From positions 1-58,372 of the IMG/VR virus record IMGVR_UViG_3300032327_000398: 58,372 nucleotides of DNA. One strand, written 5' to 3'. Positions within the stretch are counted from its first letter, which is position 1; the number at the start of each line of letters is the position of its first letter. Positions 17,908 through 52,879 of the stretch are shown piece after piece. Origin of the DNA: a virus (Duplodnaviria; Caudoviricetes). The notes under the pieces were generated by a model that searched no databases, was not told the origin of the DNA, and saw only the letters and a program-made list of their open reading frames with translations. The translations under genes were made by a program, and so were the position numbers.

Positions 17908-19302
17908 TTATGCCCACGCGAAAGATGCTTTTTCGATGGGTTTGGATTTAGTCTGCCACTGCGCACCGCTACTTATGCTGTCAATGTGCAACGCAAAGTA
18001 CTGCAGGGCGTCCGCTACGTGCGAGGCGGAATTCTTTTCAGGCGTATCTTCTACGTCACCATTTTTCTTCAGCTTGTAGCGATAGGCTCCGCGCAGTCCT
18101 CGTATGGTGTCAACACACACGGGATCGAGTAAAAAGGCAGGCTTGCCATCAACCAGACGTGTCAGGAGCGAATCTACCGCGTTTATGCGTGCAACCAGCG
18201 CGTTCGTTCTCGCGGGCATCACCCGAAATCCCTCCTGCCTGAGCACATCAAACACGGAACGCTCGTCGGTCTGCGCCCGCTGCGAGCCCGCAGGATCACC
18301 AATAATGATAAGCGGCATTCCGGCAAAGCGTGTACTGAGCAGGGGTTTAAGTTTTTCCCTGATAAAGCGTAATACCCCCATGCCCTCACTTGTCAAATCT
18401 GCGTATATCAACGCCCGTCCAAACGGATCTTGCTGACCAATCACGCAGGCCGGTGTCAGTCCAAAGTCAAACCCAATGACCAGTGGGTGTGTTGTTGACT
18501 TGATATGGCTCAGTGACTTTTTGGATACGTGCATGTCTGAGTTAAACGCACGAAACACGGGCTGACCCGACAACGATCGACCGAACTTACCGTGCACGTA
18601 GACATCCACCCAGTCCTCGGTTTTACCCTTGGCCAAGTTGTCGTAATAATCTTCGATCAAGTTATCAAGCCAATCCGCTTCAGCGCTCAGCCCACTGGGC
18701 TGCATAAAGACTTCCGCGTTATCGGGTGGCTCGCTCAGATACTTCTGCCACGTTGTGTCGCCATCAGGCGGGTTAGATGCACCCCAGACGTGATAATTCG
18801 GAGTACCGTCATCTGTGTAGCAGCCGCCCTGCCCTTTGCTCGGGTAGCGCCCGACGCGACCCTGCACGGCATCGAAAATCGCTTGGTTCACTTCTCTGAA
18901 CTCATCCATCATGGCAAAGGACGCTTCCACCGACAGCAGCCGCCTCACATCATCCTGGTCGTCCAGACCTCGAAGCAATATCTCGCACTCCACATCACCA
19001 ATCTTGAGCCACATCTTGCCGTCCACTTTCGCGTAGGTCAGGATGTCCGAGCCAAACCACTGCTGGATCGAGGGGATTGTGGAGTCTTGCAGCATCTGGC
19101 GCGTGTTACGGATGACAATACAACGTGAGCGGCGAACACCGTCTTTCTGCTTTCTCATGCGCGCGGCGTGGTAGAGGATCTTAAAGATTGCGCCCGTGGT
19201 TTTACCTGAGCCGACAGGCCCCATGATGAGACTGATGAACTTGCTGCCCTCAATAAAGCCTTGTACCGATTCGGGCGGTCTATAGGTGATGTCGCTAGTC
19301 AA
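17908..19302 (-). CDS. terL: Terminase large subunit
   Basis: Walker A GPVGSGKT, Walker B AMMDEFRE, nuclease IGFDFG...GDPAG...HVADALQY. Confidence 0.92.
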   Translation of the reverse strand: MTSDITYRPPESVQGFIEGSKFISLIMGPVGSGKTTGAIFKILYHAARMRKQKDGVRRSRCIVIRNTRQMLQDSTIPSIQQWFGSDILTYAKVDGKMWLKIGDVECEILLRGLDDQDDVRRLLSVEASFAMMDEFREVNQAIFDAVQGRVGRYPSKGQGGCYTDDGTPNYHVWGASNPPDGDTTWQKYLSEPPDNAEVFMQPSGLSAEADWLDNLIEDYYDNLAKGKTEDWVDVYVHGKFGRSLSGQPVFRAFNSDMHVSKKSLSHIKSTTHPLVIGFDFGLTPACVIGQQDPFGRALIYADLTSEGMGVLRFIREKLKPLLSTRFAGMPLIIIGDPAGSQRAQTDERSVFDVLRQEGFRVMPARTNALVARINAVDSLLTRLVDGKPAFLLDPVCVDTIRGLRGAYRYKLKKNGDVEDTPEKNSASHVADALQYFALHIDSISSGAQWQTKSKPIEKASFAWA

Positions 19303-20728: not shown

Positions 20729-21061
20729 GGGGCCTCCAGAAGTTGAGTTAGTGTGTACATACTAACAAATTGGACGAAAAAATGACGAGTTAGTTTGTTT
20801 TAGGGTAATTTTTTTGGAAAAAATTGGGGGAAGGTGTGTATGTATAGGTGTGTATACCTAAAAAATTAGGTCATGCGATGCGTGAATGCCCTAAACGCAC
20901 CCCCCACCCCACCACCCCATGGGTCGCCCCCCCACCCCCCTGCCTAGGCTGAACTCTGCTTGCATTAAATGTAGGGTCAGCAACTAACAACCATCCACTT
21001 AGTCTGAACCCTGCTCGCAGTAAATGAGGGAGCCAACTACCAACGGGTAGACGGTGAGTCA

Positions 21062-21074: not shown

Positions 21075-21309
21075 TCTGATGCACGTCTACCTTTCATGGG
21101 GTTACATGACTCTAAGCCCTCGGTTTATCTGAGGACGGATAGTCGTGCCATGTCAGACCATGACAAACATCGGAACCGGACAATGATAATTACCCAAGCC
21201 CTACACGTATTTCATAGCTAATGGTGCTAAGTGCGTGATCACATAGTGGCTTGGGGTTATCTGGGGTATTTGACCTTGCATATCGTGAGGCGTACCCCTC
21301 ATAACCCTA

Positions 21310-21987
21310 ATGGATAACATCATGACAATCGTAAACACAGAAGTCACCGCATCATTTCAAAATGACGTGCGTGTTCTGGGTAATAACGCAGAGCAAACGG
21401 CTATCAAAGCCCATGCTGTCGGTATTACTGCGGTTCAGAAGGCGTACTCTGGCGACAATTTGACCTATGCACAGTACGTGCTGGACAATTCGCCTAAGTA
21501 CGTGGCAAAGGCTCTTACCTCATGGTTTAAGCGTGCTGGTATTGACGTGATGGAGCCGCTTGTCGGTGAAAGTAAGTACATCGTGAATTGTGTAGTTGAC
21601 AAGTCACGTCAGGCTAAGGTTTTTAAGGCTATCAAGACACGTCCAGTCATCGAGACTGTAATGAAAGTAACACCTGAGCCAAAGGCTAAGGTATTGAAAG
21701 GGACAGCTGAGGAACGTGCTCAGATTGCTGTCGATCGGGTTATCACGTCCTTAAAGAAGGCTGACGATGAGTTAGCGGCTAGCATCGTATCAACTCGTAC
21801 AGCCGAATCATTCGAGGCTATGACCTTGATTAGTGCCACTGGTGCGGCTATTGAATTGGAATCGGCTGACTATAACGCTGTCGTGCAATTGCTTGAAGGT
21901 CGTGGGATTTTTATTGCTACGAATACCGCGCCGACTCCATTCACATCGTCCGACATGGATGAGTTGAAAGGTTTACTTACAGCTTAA
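21310..21987 (+). CDS. Hypothetical protein, first early gene
   Basis: 225 aa ORF, no recognised motif. Confidence 0.8.
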   Translation: MDNIMTIVNTEVTASFQNDVRVLGNNAEQTAIKAHAVGITAVQKAYSGDNLTYAQYVLDNSPKYVAKALTSWFKRAGIDVMEPLVGESKYIVNCVVDKSRQAKVFKAIKTRPVIETVMKVTPEPKAKVLKGTAEERAQIAVDRVITSLKKADDELAASIVSTRTAESFEAMTLISATGAAIELESADYNAVVQLLEGRGIFIATNTAPTPFTSSDMDELKGLLTA

Positions 21988-21992
21988 TCACA

Positions 21993-22048
21993 ATGTCACT
22001 GATGAGGGGTTAGTCCCCGAAACGTCCAGACTATCGGACGTATGACAT
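21993..22048 (+). ncRNA. Type I hammerhead ribozyme
   Basis: ATGTCA-CTGATGA-GGGG ttagt CCCC-GAAA-CGTCC agactatc GGACG-TA-TGACAT: complete core, all three stems pair, predicted cleavage after GUA (22042). Confidence 0.92.
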
Positions 22049-22082
22049 AAGCACGTACTCAACTATCAACTTGAGGTCAATC

Positions 22083-22331
22083 ATGAAACTATGTGATGTA
22101 CTACCATCTGACGTGGTGTCAGGTTTATACGCCATGAGCAGTCATAAATCCGTCCTGCGCCCTGACCCCCATGTGCTGCGTGTGCATCGTGTGGTGCGCG
22201 GTCTAATGCCGTCCCTGTCCATCGACTACCATGAGCACGTTCGTGGCTATGACGTCCCCAAATCCTATTCATCCAACATGCCACAGGTTTGTGCGTTTGC
22301 TCGTACCCACGGGATTAAGTCCCGTATCTAA
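22083..22331 (+). CDS. Hypothetical protein
   Basis: GAGG SD before ATG 22083; lies downstream of the ribozyme. Confidence 0.55.
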   Translation: MKLCDVLPSDVVSGLYAMSSHKSVLRPDPHVLRVHRVVRGLMPSLSIDYHEHVRGYDVPKSYSSNMPQVCAFARTHGIKSRI

Positions 22332-22367: not shown

Positions 22368-22403
22368 TTACACTTGACATACGTCAAGTGTAAAACTTTT
22401 TTT
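22368..22403 (+). terminator. Inverted repeat followed by T tract (terminator or operator)
   Basis: TTACACTTGAC-atac-GTCAAGTGTAA then a T run. Confidence 0.45.
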
Positions 22404-43203: not shown

Positions 43204-43415
43204 TGGAAAAGGTTAAACAACTACCCGTCGAGGGTATGGTTCGGCTCAGCGACTTGATTGGGGGGCCTACCCGGATCATCCCCTTTTCCCGTGCCACGAT
43301 CTACCGAATGATTGAGCAGGGCACTTTCCCTAGGCCTAAACGATTTGGTAACTGCGTGGCGTGGCCGGTGCAAGCCATCCGTGCATGGATAGATTCCGTG
43401 TCTAACTCTGAATGA
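43203..43415 (+). CDS. alpA: AlpA-family regulator/excisionase
   Basis: SRATIYRMI..GTFPRP...VAW....I.AWI; converges on the integrase. Confidence 0.88.
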   Translation: MEKVKQLPVEGMVRLSDLIGGPTRIIPFSRATIYRMIEQGTFPRPKRFGNCVAWPVQAIRAWIDSVSNSE

Positions 43416-44631
43416 ACCCCTTGGTATCCCTACCCTCGGCTAACGCATCCAGATAATCAGCCCATACCTGCATCATGCTCGTACGCTGCTTGAGGTGCTT
43501 AGTCCGGTTGTAGGCCGTGCCGTGGAGATCCTTCACCATGTGGCCAAGTTGTTGCTCGAGGTAGGTGTCCTTGAAGTTAAGGACTTCCTCCGCAATGGTA
43601 CGAAAGGTCGCACGAAACCCATGCACGGTAGTCTCTGTTCTCTCAAACCCCAGACGCACGAGCGCCGTATTTAACGTGCCGTCACTAATGGGTCTAGACT
43701 TTTGTAATCCGGGAAAAAGATATTCTCCATCGCCCGTTAAAAGTTTTAGTTCCTCAAGCTTTGCCACGACCTGAGTAGCTAGGGGCACAATCAACTGTGT
43801 TCCCAGTTTCTTCTCGGTCTTATTTGGCGTAAAGCTCCAAGACTTGTTCTTGAAATCAATATCCTCCCACTTAGCACGACGAATATCCCCAGGTCTAATC
43901 GCCACACGGGGCACTAACCAGAGCGCACACTTTGTCGAAGGACGTACCTTGGCATGCGGAATTGCTTTAAGTAGCACAGCGAGTTCAGCGGGATCGGTAA
44001 TCGCAGCAAAGTTATTGGTCTTAACCGCTGGCAGCGCACCCACCAAGTCCCGCGCGGGATTATGTTGAACCATCCCACGAATGACAGCAATTGAAAAGAC
44101 CCGCTTAATATCGGATAGCGCTCTATGCGCGATGTCATTGGAGCGTTGCACGATACGCTCGATTACGTGCAGGATCTCAGGGCCTGTAATCTCTTCCAGC
44201 GGTCTGTGCCCAAGGTAGGGTAATACGTCATTCTTTTGGCGGGTCGTGACATGTTCAAAGTGTTCGTCCACCCAACCACTGCGCTCCTTCTCAAGCCACA
44301 GCTTATAAGCAACTTGATACGTATTCTCAGTCTGGATAACGAGGGCTACCTTCTTGGCAACTTTAACCACCATCGGGTCACGCCCCACATCCAAGTCGGC
44401 TTTTGCAGCCTCTGTGGCCTTGCGCGCAGCAGCGAGGGACATCTCAGGGTATCGACCCATCGTTAGGGTTTTATATTTACCCCCGTACTTGTAGTTCATT
44501 CGGAAGGTAATCATGCCGCTTGGGCTTACGTACGCATACATCCCTGTCCCGTCTCCAAGCTTTACGGGCTTCTCCGAGCCTTTTACGCTGCGGAGCTGCA
44601 TGTCTTTTAGTTTCATTTTTACCTTCGGCAA
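43402..44631 (-). CDS. int: P4-type tyrosine integrase
   Basis: Arm domain DGTGM...GRYPEMSL..AR; catalytic R (RPGD), HGFR, LGH, AY; alternative ATG at 44616. Confidence 0.93.
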   Translation of the reverse strand: MPKVKMKLKDMQLRSVKGSEKPVKLGDGTGMYAYVSPSGMITFRMNYKYGGKYKTLTMGRYPEMSLAAARKATEAAKADLDVGRDPMVVKVAKKVALVIQTENTYQVAYKLWLEKERSGWVDEHFEHVTTRQKNDVLPYLGHRPLEEITGPEILHVIERIVQRSNDIAHRALSDIKRVFSIAVIRGMVQHNPARDLVGALPAVKTNNFAAITDPAELAVLLKAIPHAKVRPSTKCALWLVPRVAIRPGDIRRAKWEDIDFKNKSWSFTPNKTEKKLGTQLIVPLATQVVAKLEELKLLTGDGEYLFPGLQKSRPISDGTLNTALVRLGFERTETTVHGFRATFRTIAEEVLNFKDTYLEQQLGHMVKDLHGTAYNRTKHLKQRTSMMQVWADYLDALAEGRDTKGFIQS

Positions 44632-44929: not shown

Positions 44930-47900
44930 TTAGTTGGCATAACCAGCAGCTTTTACCCCACTAGTTTGCAGGTTTTTCGTGGTGCGTTGATCGTACTTAC
45001 GAGCAGCCTGCGGGGCTTTAAAGAGCTGTGACATGGGCTGGGTTTTAAACCCAAGGTCTCTGCGCGATGCATTGATCTCTGTCCATCGCTCCCGTGCGTC
45101 CTGCATGGCAGCGCTATCCCCCTTCTTATACGCTTGAACGTAATCGTGTTCCACCTTCTGCGTTTCTTTTCGGTAGTACGCTTCGTAGGTAGTTTCCACG
45201 CGATTGATGAATTCCTTATCCGCTAACGTATTGGTCTTTAACCCAACAGCGGTCATCATGGAGTCAAACACCCCGACTTCAGCTGGTGACAAAATCGTAG
45301 CTCCGTTGGCACGCGTCAATCCCTTTTCTTGTTGATCGAACGCCTTAACGATATTGGCAATACCTGTGGGCAGTGCTTTTTGCAGACCACCGATAAAGTC
45401 ACCATCAGCCATCTTACCCATACCCTCAAAGGTCTTGGCAGCTAGACCCGCAGTTGGGCCAGCCATACCCAGAAGAATATTCTCCGCAGTGCTTCGGGAC
45501 GCATCCTCAATCTTGGTGTAGGGCAGCAGAGACAGCATCCCACCAAACCCACCAAAGATAGGTTCCATGTCCATGCCAAGTGATTTGGGAACACCTTTGA
45601 GTAGGAAGTTTGCGAGCCCTGTGTCGCCAATGGCACGACGCATGCGGGCTTCTTGTGCTTCTGGATCGTCCGGTTCATCGCCATCGGACATTATCTTTCC
45701 AACCATCCATGCAATGGCTTTGTAGCCGGGCAGCGCCATCAACCCACCGAAGGTAAATGCAGTGCCTAGGGTATACCCTAGTGCGTACTTACCGACCGCG
45801 CGCTCTTCTTTGGATGCACCGGTAAATGCTTGCTGACCGAGTTTAACCATCAGCGACAACTGCACCATCTGGAATTTACGGAACTGAGTCAGTACACGCC
45901 CGGTCTGCGTGCGCATAATGCGCGGTGCGTTAAAGCCTGAGTAATCGCCATGAGTATCGTAAACAGTTTTGCCAGCGTACTTGACCGCAGCATCGTGACC
46001 CATGGTAGGTTTGGCCAGACGGTAAGCCGCGACAGCAGTTGTCACACGGTTAATCCCCTCGACACGTTCTGCCATAGTCTGCAGCTTGGATGTCACACGG
46101 CTAAATGCATCTGTACCTTTCAAACGATCACCCATCTCTTGGTCGAGATCGACGTTAAGCTCACCGCGCTCCATCAGTTCGTGGACAGCCTTCTGCACGT
46201 CCTTGGGCAATTTATCAAGCACGTCACGCGTCAGGTTATTACCCGCCATCACAGCGCCCACATCTTTATAGGCTGTCAGCATCGCACTCACCGCCTGACC
46301 TTGGAAACGACCTGCCAGATAGGGCAAGCTCATCGTCCATGGTTGCATCGCGTTCTGCACGTAGTACAGGGGCTTGGTCAATAACTGCATGACCGAGTTG
46401 GCTTTAAGGATCTTGCCGACTAACTTATTTTCTTTAGACTCAATGCCCATACCATGGCGGGTAAGGATCTCGTTATGCAGGTCTTGGCGCTCCATACGAT
46501 TGTCAGTCGTAATGTCCTCAGCTTCCTTTTTCATGCCGTCGAGCGAGTCTTGGATTTCCTTGGACTTATGAAGCCCTGCCAGAAAGGACGCGTTTGCCAC
46601 GCCGTGCTGGTAGAACGAGCGCATCATGTTGTTCGTCGCACCGGCAATATCATCACGGTGGTGTTCGGAATGACGAGCACTCTGCTCGCTCAGAAGCTGC
46701 AGGTGCAGCTGGGTCAGTAAGTTGTTAATTGCCCGGTGGCTTGCGCTTAAGTCGTCCTCATCTTTCTTATTAGCCAAGCTACGTGTGCGGTACAGCAAGC
46801 CCTGCATCTCTTTGCCACCAAACTTATTGGCTGCATCGTCCTTCATAAAGGATTGGGTTTCGCCATACTTCTTGAGCTGCTCCTCGATCTTGGCAGCTTG
46901 CACACCGTTCTCTGCGAAGTGAACTTGGAAGTGCTTGGGGTCATCACGATTCTTATTAACAAACTTCTGGGCGGCTTTGATCGCAGCTTCGTCGTACTGG
47001 CCTGATTTGCGATTGTTCAGGATGTCCTGATTCATCATCATCTCGGGCGAGCGCATGGTGACAACATGATCGCCAAAACGACCGAGCGGTGCGTAAGGGT
47101 TTTCCCCACGTATATTCATTACGCTATTGAGATGTCCGAGCTCAAAGTCTTTTTCATCTTCGAGTCGCTTGACTTCCTTGACGTCTCCCACAGCGCGTGC
47201 GTTAGCAATACCAATGTCGTAGTTTGCGATCGTGGTGTCTTCGATCTGGTGCTGGATCTGCTTCATGCTTGAGTAGCCATGGGCGAACACGTTACGCACG
47301 ACCTGACGGGCTGCGTCAGTAGTCAAGTTCTTATAGGCAAGTTCCAAGCCCGGGTCAACCTTGGCAGTGTTCTGCCCTGTCGACGCATTAGTAAGCCAGC
47401 TCGGTGTAAATGCCCAGCGTTTGTTACGTGTGGATTCTTTAATGAGTGCGTTGACCGAGCGCTGATCGGCTGCAGACAGTGCCTCAAAGCTCTGACCAAT
47501 CTTTTCAACGGCGCGGCGTTCATCATTACGGATGGCAACCTGCTCACCCATGGCACGCATATACGACACGGCGGACGGCATGTATTTCTCAGCGCGCGCA
47601 ACCAGATCCTTGGTAAAGGAAAGTGCCATCACACCACGCTGGATTTGCTCCGCGAAGGACTTGTAATAGAGCTGTGCGTTTGGGGGGAGCTTGGCTATGT
47701 TCTTGGCAACAACACCCTTGGCAGGTAGAGAGAACTGCATGTCTCCCACATCACCATTACGGGCAGTCGCTACACGTTGGATGTTCTTGTCGTTAAAAAT
47801 AACCGAGTTACGCGTTGCCGTTTTAACTTCTGGATGTTTAGCAACGTAATCTGCTAATCGCTTTTTACGCTCGGCAAGGTATTGCTCAGCGCGAGTAACG

Positions 47901-50900
47901 TCCTCTTGTCTTTTAGGTAGCCACTTATCCTTAGATATGTAAAACCCTGCAAGAGACACGGGGTGTTTTAATTCCCACTCGCTCGGTTTTTCCGCAATGT
48001 ATTTCTCTAACTCATCTTTTGACTCTTGGAGCAAAACCTCTGCAGCTTGGACGTCTCTAGTGTAGCGGGCAGTTCGTTTACGAACAAGATTACCCGAGCG
48101 GCTTGGATCGTCCAAGAACTTGAGACCTTTGACACCATGCTCATCTAAATACATGGACGCTGCGCGGTCGTCCTGACCCTGCTCTTGTGCATCCAGCACG
48201 TCTGGGTTGTTCGATGGGATCGTATCGTCTCTACTTGCTCGCTCAAGTATTTTGTAAAGATCTTTACCCGTCATCTCAGTTGCGTCGATGTTTATCTGAT
48301 CGAGGTAGTCATCAAAGTTTTCTTGCCCAATCTCTGAGCGTATTTTCTCAACGGCTTGTTTGACGTGATCGCTTTGCTCGGACATCGGCGCATCATAATC
48401 TAGCCACTCGTAGTCAGCGATGTTTGAGTCCACACGGTGCAGTGAGCCTTGGTTAGTGTCTGATTGCCGTCCTTTATTTTTAATATCACGCACACGATAG
48501 CCTTGGCCAATACCAAAGCGTTGGGCAGCATAAGTACCCCAACCGAAAGCCTGAGCGCCCTCACCTGAGTTCATGAACGCGTGATTAAATTTTCTGAATG
48601 ATGCTGCGGTGCCGTGCCAGCTTCCAGACATTTCTAACTTGGCTGCACCGTAGGCCATGTCGACCATATCCTGCGCAGTGAGCTTCTCTGGATTGAACCC
48701 AAGTTTACGTATCGCTGCTTTCATGGCAGCGTAAACCGAACGGAACCAACGACCAAGCTCGGACTTGTAGCTCAGCGCCGTAGGATCAACACCCATGTTG
48801 ATCGCTTCTTCAAGGAAGTACGCAACAAGCTCGGTATTACGTTGATTGTCAGATGCGTTAGCAGAAAATACTCGGCCAAGTGCTTTGACAGCAATCTTGG
48901 ACTCGATGGAGTCGTCCTGCTTTCCAGCCCATGCAACAATACTATCTACTAGCTTGTCAAACTGAGCGTCGTTAAGCAGACGTTGAATACCGAGATGGGA
49001 GCCAACTTCATGAAGGAACACAGCCCGTGTCATACCCTTGGGGATATTTCCCGCGATCAGGTAAGCCTTTCCACCCGCAACGACACCCCTTGAGTTAGCG
49101 TCGAACTTCGGGTGGTTACGAATATCAGCAGGTAATTGTTCAACCGATTCAACAACTACCAGACGGCTTTCGTTTAGGGTTCCAACAAATTCTTTAACCG
49201 CAGCATTTGCGGAAGCAACCGTTTCAGTTTCTCCATTGGTACTCGTATTGCTGGTACTGTTCTGGATAGCGTCGTCTTTGGGTACGAGCCCATTCTTCTC
49301 CATGAACTTAACTACGTCCGCTAGCTTTTGGCTCGGCAGGTCAAAGGCTGCAAAGTCTGACTGTTGCTTCTCGGTTAGCTCTGAGAACTTCTTGGCACCG
49401 GGGATTACGGCAACGGCTTTGTCCCATGACCTACTAGCCACGTCCTTGCGTGTCTCTCCTACCGCAGCGGTCTGCGCGGGTGCTGCTTTCTCAGTGGTTT
49501 TCTCGGCAGCGACTTTTCTAGGTGTGGTTACTTTCTTAGGCTTTTCTGTACCCGTTTCTTTCTTGCTTAGATTTTTCTTGGCCGCTTTGATGTTGGCTGT
49601 TGCCTGCTTTGTCTCAAAATCATCAAGCGCTTTCTGAGTGGACTCTACCAAGTCCTGATCGCCAGCTTCGTGCGCGGCATCATTAGCTGCTTGGAGTGCT
49701 TCCCATTTGGCAGCAGCGGCTTCGTTTGTATTACCAAACTCACTTTTGCTCGCGCCGGTGCTACCAGTACGAATATTGACGTTAGACTCGATATTGCCTT
49801 CGCTGTCTATAGACCCATCGCCCAGTACAGATTCTTGCTCGAAGCCACGAACACCTGAGCCATCTTCCAAGAACTGCTGGATTTCGCTTTTCTCGTTCTC
49901 ACGATCCGCAGACTCAATCCATTTCGTAACTTCGCTTGGTGCAATAAGTGCTTGGTAAAGATCAGTCGGGGTCATGCCCTCCGGCAACTGAATCGAAGAT
50001 CCGATAGCGTTGAGTGAGGTGGCGTACTTAGCCAGCCAACGCGATATATCCCCACTATTACGAGGAATATCTGCACTCCATTTCTTAATCTGAGACTCAG
50101 TTACCCCTAGCTCTTTGGCAATTTCTGCCTGCGTGTTATTACGGTCTGCTAGAGCCCGACCCCAGTTTTCTTGGAAAAATTTGGCTTTCGCTTCAAGATC
50201 TTGACCTTGCGGAGTGGCGTGACGAAAAACTCGTAATAAAAAATCACCAATAAATGATCGAGTTTTTTCGGCCTCTATTTCGACGAGGGGTCTTTCGCTT
50301 TCTTGAGTTGACTGCGTTCGAAGGCCGGTAGAATTGCCTTGAATATCTCTATCGAGTTGCGTGTCACCATCTTGTCGTGCGCCAGCGTCCCCCGTTTGGG
50401 AGTCTGATCTGACGACAATGCGGGTTCCACTGGTGTCAATAGAGAGTCCGGTACCTGCAGTTCCTGATCCTGCTGCGGGTCTATCGGTGGTTTGACCATT
50501 TGTGTCATCCTTTCTTGGAGCGCGGCCTTTGGAACCGATGAGTTTACCGGAAGACGTGAGCTTTGGTGCAGGATTTATTTCCTGCGTTTGACTGCCATCA
50601 TTGGAAATATTGGCATCGGGGGTGAGTACGGCTCGTTGTCCATCTCCACCATCTCCGCTGGTGTCATTTTGCTCGCCATTCGATCCAGCAACGATACTTC
50701 CTGCTCCGACGGGTTGAACGCCCGTTGATCGTATAAGCCCAATTTGGTTTCCGCTAGTTTCATTTGTTCCGCTTTGCTCTGGAACTTCTCCCAGCCCGGC
50801 AGTGTTTTGCAATCCTTCATTTGATGCTCCTGTAGTGTTTTGAGTTAAAAGCGTGCGAAGACCATCTGGCGCTGCCGGCGATACCAACCCTGCGCGTTCC

Positions 50901-52879
50901 ATTTGTCCTAGCAAATCTTGTGCGCGTTTATAGTCAACCCGGAAATGTCGTTGGATAAGCGACACCGATGCGCGATTATTTTTTTGTATTAGCTCGACTG
51001 CTGGGGCGTAGAGCGGATCAGTTGCAGCGTTTGCGGCATCCAGACGTGCCTGTGCTTCTTTAACTGCGTCTGATGTAGCCGTTGTAACTGCACTTGGTGC
51101 AGTAGAGTCAACTTTTGTATCGGTAGCAACAGGTGTTGCAGCCGTGGTAGCTACGGCAGTGGATGCAGACTTAGCAGCGGGTTTACCAGTGGGTGTTTTC
51201 TTGGCGTCCTTGGTTGCCTGCTTAGCGGCCTGCTTATCCGCCTCAGCCTTGGCTACCTCAGCTTGATGTGCGTCATTACGCGCCACCGCACGTTCCCTAG
51301 CCGGTGAGTCAGCCCCAGTTAATTCTTTGTGTAGTTTGTTTAGCTCGTTGGCAAACTTAGCACCCTTGCCATCAAGACGTATGTCTTCACTTGCAGGGAT
51401 CGCGTCAATCTGTGCGTCAATCCTGGAGATAACTTCAGCAGGGTTTGCAGCCGTGTCTAACTGGTTCTTCTTTAGGTACGCTGTAACTGCGTTCACTACC
51501 CCTTTAGGGTTTGCGTCAGGCGTGACTTGTACCGCACCCGAATTAATAACCGCACCGATAAGCGTCTTTTGCTCAGGTGACATATTGGAGGACGCTTTTT
51601 CGAGTCCGACGATAAATGCCTTAGCGTCATTCTGGGTAAAAATTGGTTTACTACCGATTGAGAATTGTCCCGTTGGATTACCATCTGCGCCCATGGTTGG
51701 ACGAACACCAAACGTCCCTGCGACAGTAGCAAAGCCTGCATCATGTGATGCCTGTGTCTGCTGCGCTGCAGCGGCAGCATCAGCTTGTTGTTTCTGGATA
51801 TTAGCGGCAGCAACAGCTGCGGAGTCAGCCTCGTTCTGTTTAATCTGTTCAGGAGTCAGCAATTGCGGGCCGATACTTGCCACGGCTTTAGCTTGGGAGT
51901 TGGCAGCGATTTGCTCAGGCGTAAGCGAAGAGGTGTTCGTGAAATCGTTTTCATTAATGGCAGCACCAATTGCACCACCCGCGCTTGGCCTACGGCCTCT
52001 AAAGCCAGCGGGCAAACCCATCACACCTTCAACTACACCGCCAATCACACCGGCATTTAAACGCTGGCTGAACTTCTCGTCATCAGTAAGTGGCTTGCCA
52101 ACTGCCATCTCAAGCTCACCTTGCGTAAGCTCACTTGTCGCACCCGATGCGCCCTGCACGGCAAAGTTCTTGCCCATACGTGTCAGCAGATTACCCGAGG
52201 CACCACTGCCATTGGCGAGCTTTCCAAACAACATAGCTTGGGGAATAGTCTCGGCCAGAGCATGCGGAACCGCACCAAGGAAGGCAGTAGCACCGGGGCT
52301 TTTATCTTCTGGGTTCTCGCTCGCAGAGTCATACATCGAGCCCACGCCCGTGCCGTAATTAAACGCAGCACCGCCCGTAATAGCACGGGCTAAGTCTTTG
52401 CCGCCTTCAAGAGCTGCACGTCTGGCTGCAAACGACGACCCAGCCTCAAGCGCTGCAGCCCCACCACCACCAAGTATTCTTGGAACGAACGCCGCACCTC
52501 GTGCGAGCGCAGCGGGTATAGCCACTTCGGGGAGTGCGATAGCGGTAGCTACTGATCCAGCTAGGTTAGGGAGTTGCTTACCAATCTGATACGCCAACAT
52601 CGGGGCAGCGTTGCCCCAGCTAATGTCTTCAATCTTCTCTAGGTCTGGGCGACCGTTTAACCTTGACTCTATGCTGTTTCGATCAGCGCCCTCCTCACCC
52701 CAGTTTTTTATCTTGTTAGAGCCAACTAGATCACCGATAGCTGCGATACCAGAGTATCCAAGGCCCTGCAGATCGTCGATACCTGATGATACGCCTGATA
52801 CTAAAGCGTTACGGTCTTGCCGTCTAATATCCTGAACAGGGTCATTGTCTAGTGGTTCAAAATCGTTAAGCAACGCCAT
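44930..52879 (-). CDS. Giant polyvalent internal virion/ejection protein (2649 aa)
   Basis: Gly/Ala hydrophobic N-terminus, FtsK-gamma-like domain, HTH, HEVGSH zincin-like, WHGT...FGWGTY ART-like and PLGRFG motifs. Confidence 0.8.
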   Translation of the reverse strand: MALLNDFEPLDNDPVQDIRRQDRNALVSGVSSGIDDLQGLGYSGIAAIGDLVGSNKIKNWGEEGADRNSIESRLNGRPDLEKIEDISWGNAAPMLAYQIGKQLPNLAGSVATAIALPEVAIPAALARGAAFVPRILGGGGAAALEAGSSFAARRAALEGGKDLARAITGGAAFNYGTGVGSMYDSASENPEDKSPGATAFLGAVPHALAETIPQAMLFGKLANGSGASGNLLTRMGKNFAVQGASGATSELTQGELEMAVGKPLTDDEKFSQRLNAGVIGGVVEGVMGLPAGFRGRRPSAGGAIGAAINENDFTNTSSLTPEQIAANSQAKAVASIGPQLLTPEQIKQNEADSAAVAAANIQKQQADAAAAAQQTQASHDAGFATVAGTFGVRPTMGADGNPTGQFSIGSKPIFTQNDAKAFIVGLEKASSNMSPEQKTLIGAVINSGAVQVTPDANPKGVVNAVTAYLKKNQLDTAANPAEVISRIDAQIDAIPASEDIRLDGKGAKFANELNKLHKELTGADSPARERAVARNDAHQAEVAKAEADKQAAKQATKDAKKTPTGKPAAKSASTAVATTAATPVATDTKVDSTAPSAVTTATSDAVKEAQARLDAANAATDPLYAPAVELIQKNNRASVSLIQRHFRVDYKRAQDLLGQMERAGLVSPAAPDGLRTLLTQNTTGASNEGLQNTAGLGEVPEQSGTNETSGNQIGLIRSTGVQPVGAGSIVAGSNGEQNDTSGDGGDGQRAVLTPDANISNDGSQTQEINPAPKLTSSGKLIGSKGRAPRKDDTNGQTTDRPAAGSGTAGTGLSIDTSGTRIVVRSDSQTGDAGARQDGDTQLDRDIQGNSTGLRTQSTQESERPLVEIEAEKTRSFIGDFLLRVFRHATPQGQDLEAKAKFFQENWGRALADRNNTQAEIAKELGVTESQIKKWSADIPRNSGDISRWLAKYATSLNAIGSSIQLPEGMTPTDLYQALIAPSEVTKWIESADRENEKSEIQQFLEDGSGVRGFEQESVLGDGSIDSEGNIESNVNIRTGSTGASKSEFGNTNEAAAAKWEALQAANDAAHEAGDQDLVESTQKALDDFETKQATANIKAAKKNLSKKETGTEKPKKVTTPRKVAAEKTTEKAAPAQTAAVGETRKDVASRSWDKAVAVIPGAKKFSELTEKQQSDFAAFDLPSQKLADVVKFMEKNGLVPKDDAIQNSTSNTSTNGETETVASANAAVKEFVGTLNESRLVVVESVEQLPADIRNHPKFDANSRGVVAGGKAYLIAGNIPKGMTRAVFLHEVGSHLGIQRLLNDAQFDKLVDSIVAWAGKQDDSIESKIAVKALGRVFSANASDNQRNTELVAYFLEEAINMGVDPTALSYKSELGRWFRSVYAAMKAAIRKLGFNPEKLTAQDMVDMAYGAAKLEMSGSWHGTAASFRKFNHAFMNSGEGAQAFGWGTYAAQRFGIGQGYRVRDIKNKGRQSDTNQGSLHRVDSNIADYEWLDYDAPMSEQSDHVKQAVEKIRSEIGQENFDDYLDQINIDATEMTGKDLYKILERASRDDTIPSNNPDVLDAQEQGQDDRAASMYLDEHGVKGLKFLDDPSRSGNLVRKRTARYTRDVQAAEVLLQESKDELEKYIAEKPSEWELKHPVSLAGFYISKDKWLPKRQEDVTRAEQYLAERKKRLADYVAKHPEVKTATRNSVIFNDKNIQRVATARNGDVGDMQFSLPAKGVVAKNIAKLPPNAQLYYKSFAEQIQRGVMALSFTKDLVARAEKYMPSAVSYMRAMGEQVAIRNDERRAVEKIGQSFEALSAADQRSVNALIKESTRNKRWAFTPSWLTNASTGQNTAKVDPGLELAYKNLTTDAARQVVRNVFAHGYSSMKQIQHQIEDTTIANYDIGIANARAVGDVKEVKRLEDEKDFELGHLNSVMNIRGENPYAPLGRFGDHVVTMRSPEMMMNQDILNNRKSGQYDEAAIKAAQKFVNKNRDDPKHFQVHFAENGVQAAKIEEQLKKYGETQSFMKDDAANKFGGKEMQGLLYRTRSLANKKDEDDLSASHRAINNLLTQLHLQLLSEQSARHSEHHRDDIAGATNNMMRSFYQHGVANASFLAGLHKSKEIQDSLDGMKKEAEDITTDNRMERQDLHNEILTRHGMGIESKENKLVGKILKANSVMQLLTKPLYYVQNAMQPWTMSLPYLAGRFQGQAVSAMLTAYKDVGAVMAGNNLTRDVLDKLPKDVQKAVHELMERGELNVDLDQEMGDRLKGTDAFSRVTSKLQTMAERVEGINRVTTAVAAYRLAKPTMGHDAAVKYAGKTVYDTHGDYSGFNAPRIMRTQTGRVLTQFRKFQMVQLSLMVKLGQQAFTGASKEERAVGKYALGYTLGTAFTFGGLMALPGYKAIAWMVGKIMSDGDEPDDPEAQEARMRRAIGDTGLANFLLKGVPKSLGMDMEPIFGGFGGMLSLLPYTKIEDASRSTAENILLGMAGPTAGLAAKTFEGMGKMADGDFIGGLQKALPTGIANIVKAFDQQEKGLTRANGATILSPAEVGVFDSMMTAVGLKTNTLADKEFINRVETTYEAYYRKETQKVEHDYVQAYKKGDSAAMQDARERWTEINASRRDLGFKTQPMSQLFKAPQAARKYDQRTTKNLQTSGVKAAGYAN
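50275..50499 (-). CDS. Putative nested +1-frame ORF B inside the giant gene
   Basis: AAAGGA-8 nt-ATG; 74 aa MVKPPIDPQQDQ...KKAKDPSSK. Confidence 0.45.
   Translation of the reverse strand: MVKPPIDPQQDQELQVPDSLLTPVEPALSSDQTPKRGTLAHDKMVTRNSIEIFKAILPAFERSQLKKAKDPSSK
50575..50820 (-). CDS. Putative nested +1-frame ORF A inside the giant gene
   Basis: ACAGGAG-6 nt-ATG; 81 aa MKDCKTLPGWEKF...MMAVKRRK with protein-like composition. Confidence 0.55.
   Translation of the reverse strand: MKDCKTLPGWEKFQSKAEQMKLAETKLGLYDQRAFNPSEQEVSLLDRMASKMTPAEMVEMDNEPYSPPMPIFPMMAVKRRK

Follow-up and report, generated by a model that had tools for sequence, protein, structure and literature searches.

Does the short spacer between the first two genes of a phage's replication arm hold a genuine self-cleaving hammerhead ribozyme, and what would its cleavage do to the transcript that carries it? 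We addressed this question in a window that comprises one whole IMG/VR record, a complete virus genome of 58,372 bp with direct terminal repeats. Leftward from position ~20,728, the minus strand encodes the large terminase, an N4 gp49-like protein and tail proteins, among others. The rightward genes of the plus strand occupy 21,310 to 43,203, and their products include an ATPase, an HNH endonuclease, a DNA polymerase, a helicase and a primase. We consider the phage to be temperate because it carries an integrase gene on the minus strand (Table 1); no tRNA genes were found in the 58-kb genome. The 95-nt spacer that separates gene 1 from gene 2, where the rightward (replication) arm begins, carries the hammerhead motif on its coding strand. 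Five nucleotides (21988–92) separate the gene 1 stop codon from stem I, and 34 nt separate the end of the motif from the gene 2 ATG. The setting is thus intercistronic, with the motif in sense orientation in a short spacer and both flanking genes on the plus strand. Matches to a sigma-70-like promoter around the locus were not above those in shuffled sequence (5 versus 5.7).

The original prediction described a complete type I hammerhead at this locus, and direct reading of the sequence located every one of its elements in the expected place. The full motif spans positions 21993–22048 (+), with stems I, II and III of 6, 4 and 6 bp, respectively; all 16 of the 16 stem pairs are Watson-Crick, and every core position fits the consensus. 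At the DNA level, stem III consists of A15.1 (22022) paired with U16.1 (22041) and CGTCC (22023–27) paired with GGACG (22036–40), closed by the loop AGACTATC. The pairs adjacent to the core are all intact (U22043-A21998, G22006-C22018 and A22022-U22041). Stem I is open and stems II and III are closed by loops, which is the topology of type I. The nucleotide that follows U16.1 is A22042, not G; with A22042 as H17 and GUA as the triplet, cleavage is predicted between 22042 and 22043.

Table 1. Features of the hammerhead locus and of the genome around it, with positions in the window.
Feature	Position	Strand	Basis
Large terminase (TerL)	17908-19302	-	leftward arm
Gene 1, 225 aa, first ORF of rightward arm	21310..21987	+	ORF list, homologues
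Proposed outer helix GCUU/AAGC enclosing 7-nt bulge AAUCACA	21982-22052	+	weakly supported
Gene 1 stop TAA	21985..21987	+	sequence, ORF end
Stem I 5' strand AUGUCA	21993-21998	+	sequence, fold, descriptor, R1
Catalytic core C3-A9 CUGAUGA	21999-22005	+	sequence, descriptor, R1
Stem II GGGG 22006-09/CCCC 22015-18, loop UUAGU, closing pair G10.1-C11.1	22006-22018	+	sequence, fold
Core G12 A13 A14 (GAA)	22019-22021	+	sequence, descriptor, R1
Stem III ACGUCC/GGACGU including A15.1-U16.1, loop AGACUAUC	22022-22041	+	sequence, fold
Predicted cleavage site after H17 = A22042	22042..22043	+	core numbering
Stem I 3' strand UGACAU	22043-22048	+	sequence, fold, descriptor, R1
GAGG, Shine-Dalgarno-like site of gene 2, 5 nt before ATG	22074..22077	+	sequence
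Gene 2, predicted 82-aa ORFan, ATG 22083	22083..22331	+	ORF list
Terminator-like hairpin, 11 pairs, 4-nt loop, then T run, 36 nt past gene 2	22368..22403	+	consensus
Integrase	43402-44631	-	gene annotation

The site is a real hammerhead, far beyond what chance would produce. A hammerhead descriptor applied to both strands of the 58,372 bp returned one match, which is this site, and no type II or type III permutation was found in the genome, even with loose stem rules. Among 1000 dinucleotide-preserving shuffles of the whole genome, 5 contained a loose match and none a match with stems of 6, 4 and 6 pairs. Rough arithmetic gives an expectation of ~1e-5 chance sites per genome when G-U pairs are allowed, and far fewer when all pairs must be Watson-Crick.

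We also compared the site with curated covariance models. A scan with Rfam 15 at the gathering score gave no matches, a scan of 251 nt at E<=10 gave no Rfam hammerhead family, and at the same E threshold none of RF00163, RF02276 and RF03152 matched anywhere in the genome. RF00163 (Hammerhead_1; gathering score 34 bits) shares its open stem I topology and its core with the site, but its score threshold was not reached; it was unmatched genome-wide and in the 251-nt and 71-nt scans. RF02276 (Hammerhead_II; gathering score 37 bits) was unmatched at E<=10, and the topology of the site is type I, not type II. The best Rfam match, obtained in the 71-nt scan only, was to RF03152 (RAGATH-1-hammerhead), which scored 20.7 bits (E 0.074) where its cut-off is 56.3. 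This match spans model positions 22–77 of 77 and aligns stem I, the core, stem II and a long stem III with the site, leaving model positions 1–21 unmatched. Since no Rfam threshold was reached, the site does not belong to any curated hammerhead family by Rfam criteria.

We next turned to a model of our own, built from viral hammerheads. A generic core pattern matched at least 120 loci in IMG/VR, and the descriptor, applied to these, identified 79 type I hammerheads in 58 of 120 loci among the matches listed. From this survey, 61 distinct sites of 46–62 nt were aligned, and the 30 that were in register and had ordinary stem lengths were kept and realigned. The resulting covariance model, R1, represents 30 viral type I hammerheads with a hand-checked structure, and the site under study was left out of it. 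The survey set and R1 were both picked with one kind of descriptor, so that both are independent of the site, though not of how a hammerhead is defined. Searched against the genome with filters off, R1 matched positions 21993–22048 (+) at 45.3 bits, with an E value of 1.7e-12 on a rough calibration, across model positions 1–50 of 50; the second-best site in the genome, among the 10 matches listed, scored 10.2 bits (E 1.1). Over 59 sources R1 gave 80 matches at E<=0.001, and the site ranked 34th among them. In the class alignment, 95.9% of cells were paired and 13 of 15 pairs had changes on both sides; these counts describe the class and are no test of this locus, because the set was selected on pairing and fitted to the model. 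The covariance-model comparison proposed for the original prediction was thus negative for the curated Rfam models and positive for the viral model R1. That the Rfam models miss a site that a 30-sequence model finds easily suggests that automatic annotation may under-count such viral hammerheads.

The survey also allowed us to ask how usual the site is for its class. Stem I and stem II lengths of 6 and 4 bp, as found here, were the commonest combination, occurring in 26 of 79 sites among the matches listed. The site further resembles the surveyed viral set in its 5-nt, U-rich loop II, its C15.2-G16.2 pair, an upstream stop codon no more than 10 nt away and the short leader that precedes the next start. 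To score stop codons, we required a sense-strand open frame of at least 60 codons ending between -30 and +10 nt from the start of stem I. Such a stop was present at 51 of the 79 sites among the matches listed, compared with 9.8% of 20,000 random positions and 7 of 79 when the antisense strand was scored. Among the same listed matches, the stop fell 0–10 nt before stem I, as it does here, at 20 of 79 sites, overlapped the 5' strand of stem I at 12, coincided with the first UGA of the core CUGAUGA at 15 and lay elsewhere inside the ribozyme at 4; the remaining 28 had no such stop nearby. A TAA lies directly 5' of stem I in 22 of 79 viral hammerheads among the matches listed. We conclude that the site has an architecture and a placement that are ordinary for viral type I hammerheads. 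It differs in detail from other members: it has UUAGU as loop II, where (6, 4) members among the matches listed most often have UUAAU, and its stop codon is 5 nt from stem I, whereas many members listed have a stop flush with the stem. It is also present in one copy, whereas some of the survey contigs listed hold 3 to 5. By the descriptor, four IMG/VR loci (L118, L034, L122 and L091) contain 3–5 type I hammerheads each, a few hundred nucleotides apart, which is the clustered layout familiar from prophages; at L118, R1 gave further, weaker matches beyond the descriptor sites.

Folding calculations agreed with the hammerhead structure when the motif was considered by itself. The minimum-energy fold of the 71-nt stretch is a hammerhead three-way junction with an outer extension (-20.6 kcal/mol, z -2.3), and 4 of 200 shuffles folded equally well; for the 56-nt core stretch the hammerhead is likewise the minimum-energy fold, at -19.1 kcal/mol. 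The original prediction had extended stem I through a bulge by pairing GCTT (21982–85) with AAGC (22049–52). The two segments are indeed complementary and the extension forms in the 71-nt fold, but with flanking sequence its pairing probability is at most 0.02, so that this part of the prediction is not supported. In larger contexts the three stems behaved differently. Stem III paired with a probability of 0.91–1.0 in all of them, and stem II with a probability of 0.93–0.98 in three of four and 0.33 in the fourth, whereas stem I had a pairing probability of 0.00–0.04 in equilibrium folds of contexts from 149 to 1094 nt. Because stem I is disfavoured at equilibrium, the ribozyme could cleave efficiently only if it folded during transcription or were stabilised by tertiary contacts; equilibrium folding takes no account of the order of transcription, of ribosomes or of tertiary contacts. 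A helix between 21989–22004 and 22105–18, within gene 2, dominates the equilibrium folds; we rejected it as a candidate, 69 of 500 shuffles having equalled or beaten it.

Fast hammerhead cleavage at cellular Mg2+ requires a tertiary contact between stem I and loop II. The geometry of the site suits such a contact, with a 6-bp stem I, unpaired flanks, a 4-bp stem II and a 5-nt loop. A search for Watson-Crick complementarity found no base-pairing partner for loop II in the flanks of stem I, with at most 3 contiguous pairs. Across the survey, complementarity between loop II and the flanks, as in a pseudoknot, was not enriched (15 of 79 sites among the matches listed, against a permuted mean of 10.4).

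We then considered the flanking genes. Gene 1 has two homologues, with 72% and 61% identity, on 1.5-kb contigs from ENA and Logan, indicating that it encodes a real, conserved protein. Both homologues begin at the second ATG, at 21322, and the C-terminus of gene 1, next to the ribozyme, is unlike either of them. Neither the ATG at 21310 nor that at 21322 has a clear Shine-Dalgarno site. Gene 1 had no match in Pfam, PHROG, NCBIfam or PDB, and the ESM Atlas returned viral hypothetical clusters only. Immediately upstream, positions 21251–21310 hold an 18-nt inverted repeat, 83% complementary, with 24 nt between its arms, that ends exactly at the first ATG of gene 1. Within the gene, a 237-bp piece (21658–21894) is found with an identical sequence as a contig in a marine-metagenome run from a study other than that of the probable source sample, which shows that the phage or a very close relative is not restricted to one sample. 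For gene 2, the sole database match was to itself, and no match was found in Pfam, PHROG, NCBIfam, PDB or the ESM Atlas; its ORFan status leaves the downstream 'gene' unproven. The terminator-like hairpin beyond it is a match to the consensus only, since the number of such sites does not exceed that in shuffles (3 against a mean of 3.0).

Relatives of the locus were scarce. DNA searches of the region and of an 86-nt motif against cultured phages gave nothing, or two chance-level matches in a Lactococcus lysin gene (E=3). With gene 1 and the downstream ATPase as anchors we found no relatives in IMG/VR, and alignment of gene 1 against JGI metagenomes and GTDB genomes likewise gave none. Five viral fragments related through TerL had no homologues of the early genes. 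The cultured phages with the nearest TerL are Rollin and RHph_TM3_14A (45% and 36% identity); neither these nor three related fragments had an R1 match, and a positive control recovered the site. The absence of the ribozyme from the cultured phages with the nearest TerL indicates that the element is sporadic rather than a trait of the wider group. Patterns derived from the motif had no matches in IMG/VR, and one such pattern matched four loci in metagenomes, all unrelated. Two short metagenome contigs each carry the same hammerhead core twice, L131 at 160–201 and 759–800 on the minus strand and L129 at 3–29 and 549–575 on the plus strand. The spacing between the cores is 599 nt in L131 and 546 nt in L129, and stem III of the L131 ribozyme is minimal. 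Such tandem units resemble viroid-like, satellite or retrozyme-type repeats and have no relation to the phage. A search of sequencing runs found no RNA run among those that hold the sequence; the one run that contains it in full is probably the source sample.

Hundreds of bacterial hammerheads have been reported, many of them near integrases or in prophages; as a group they frequently flank a single gene or a short block of genes (PMC3088659). Some of them were shown to cleave, both in vitro and in E. coli (Perreault et al. 2011, PLoS Comput Biol, PMC3088659). Their proposed role is the processing of long phage transcripts to gene-length mRNAs (Perreault et al. 2011, PMC3088659), with products that may differ in stability or translation efficiency (PMC6765202), and the roles of bacterial and phage hammerheads are described as still largely elusive (Weinberg et al. 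2019 review, PMC6765202). These two sources (PMC3088659, PMC6765202) bear out the statement in the original prediction that such ribozymes occur in phages with largely unknown roles. The element described here is a new example of this phage hammerhead type, known since 2011, and not a new kind. Like the phage hammerheads of Perreault et al. (2011), it has a full consensus core and lies in an intergenic position on the sense strand of an integrase-carrying phage, where processing of a polycistronic transcript can be proposed. In contrast to those, it occurs singly rather than in a pair or cluster, comes after the first gene of the replication arm and is flanked by genes of no known family; published phage cases, and those of our survey, are often clustered. 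A likeness in principle exists to the glmS and twister ribozymes of bacterial mRNAs (PMC6765202), where self-cleavage within an mRNA gives a 5'-OH product with an altered fate. The hammerhead fold is unrelated to those ribozymes, has no ligand dependence and is intercistronic here rather than in a 5' UTR.

We assign a probability of roughly 0.8 to the reading that a genuine sense-strand type I hammerhead in the spacer between gene 1 and gene 2 cleaves the transcript into RNAs that are handled differently. Once the 3' strand of stem I (22043–48) had been transcribed, the junction would fold and the 2'-OH of A22042 would attack the adjacent phosphate. Hammerhead cleavage leaves a 2',3'-cyclic phosphate on the 5' fragment and a 5'-OH on the 3' fragment (PMC6765202). 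From this chemistry and from the layout of the genes, it is plausible that cleavage yields a gene 1 RNA and a 5'-OH gene 2 mRNA. The gene 1 RNA would retain the stem II and stem III hairpins and end in the cyclic phosphate. U22043, bearing a 5'-OH, would be the first nucleotide of the gene 2 RNA, which would have a 40-nt leader that includes the GAGG and would end at the terminator-like hairpin near 22400. By analogy with proposals for phage hammerheads, the two halves would gain different stability or translation efficiency, and host RNases would set which half is favoured; uncoupled stability or translation of the two early products is the likely consequence. If the halves differ in this way, one promoter could yield unequal amounts of two early products. 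Unmasking of the gene 2 ribosome-binding site by cleavage finds no support, since the site is unpaired with a probability of 0.39 in the uncut RNA and 0.36 in the cut one.

Other readings of the locus were weighed against this one. It is exceedingly improbable that the motif is a chance resemblance with no evolved function: rare motifs are expected when very many windows are scanned, and the Rfam models make no call, but 0 of 1000 shuffles were as good, R1 gave an E value of ~1e-12 and roughly calculated expectation is ~1e-5 sites per genome. The position of the motif, on the sense strand of an intergenic spacer and in a context typical of the class, also argues against chance. We think it unlikely that the site is an evolved hammerhead that is inactive or inefficient in its native transcript, either a decaying relic or one trapped by alternative pairings, with little effect on expression. 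The low probability of stem I (0.00–0.04 in contexts of 149 to 1094 nt), the lack of a detected loop II partner and the presence of a single copy for which no conserved relatives were found are all consistent with such an element, and some consensus-like candidates were inactive in vitro (Perreault et al. 2011, PMC3088659). On the other hand, the core and stems are undegraded, with 16 of 16 pairs Watson-Crick, and the strongest competing duplex (with 22104–18) is at chance level, 69 of 500 shuffles doing as well or better. The equilibrium folds, moreover, omit co-transcription, ribosomes and tertiary contacts.

A further reading makes the ribozyme the border of an exchangeable cassette, consisting of gene 2 and its terminator, with which it travels, and gives it a role in gene shuffling or in the insulation of a 'moron'. 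The genes that flank hammerheads vary (Perreault et al. 2011, PMC3088659), and features of the locus point the same way: gene 2, an ORFan, has a ribosome-binding site of its own as well as a terminator-like hairpin, the C-terminus of gene 1 beside the ribozyme differs from both homologues and the two cultured phages with the nearest TerL lack the ribozyme. We nevertheless regard a cassette border as very improbable. Descriptor and repeat searches found no second ribozyme or repeat bounding the cassette, and we know of no mechanism for hammerhead-driven mobilisation of DNA in phages, which counts against such a role here. The last alternative refines our preferred explanation by adding a ribosomal gate, such that translation of gene 1 controls release of the gene 2 mRNA. 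With 5 nt between the stop codon and stem I, a ribosome that terminates there would sit over the 5' strand of the stem and open it; with stem I melted, cleavage would occur only when gene 1 is untranslated, and release of the gene 2 mRNA would be tied to gene 1 translation. The geometry of the stop codon and stem I, read from the sequence, fits such a gate, as do the stops flush with or inside the ribozyme at 51 of 79 surveyed sites, 15 of them at the core UGA and 12 over stem I, among the matches listed. Tight packing of genes alone predicts the same pattern, however, and 28 of the 79 hammerheads listed have no nearby stop; the gap also spans -30 to +10, which implies no fixed register. Modulation of cleavage by ribosomes, which had been suggested in the original prediction, is therefore not supported, as the proximity of the stop is the usual viral layout and tight gene packing fits it equally well, and we hold a ribosomal gate to be improbable. 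If it were true, the fate of the 5'-OH gene 2 mRNA would read out the translation load of gene 1, and such a translation-sensing switch would apply to many viral type I hammerheads at stop codons (51 of 79 among the matches listed).

For the reading that we prefer, a genuine hammerhead whose cleavage divides the transcript between gene 1 and gene 2, the phage offers a clean, single-copy example in a complete temperate genome, placed after the first gene of the replication arm. The two-gene layout makes it a simple system for testing what phage hammerheads do.

We made several further observations elsewhere in the genome. The divergent control region between the two arms contains a C-rich, low-complexity tract (20898–20945) with runs of 4–7 C, which is matched, with variable small deletions, by short contigs from other runs of the source study. 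Upstream of gene 1 lie two imperfect direct repeats of ~43 nt (20948–20990 and 21003–21044). They were seen by eye and are absent from the output of the computed repeat search; they are ~80% alike with two indels, start with CTGAAC...CTGCT and end with CAACTA.CAAC, and could be operators, iterons or a small RNA. Adjoining the integrase, positions 44930–52879 (-) encode a protein of 2649 aa, residues 1092–2622 of which match DarB-like antirestriction PHROGs; an FtsK/SpoIIIE-like stretch lies near residues 573–682 of the same protein.
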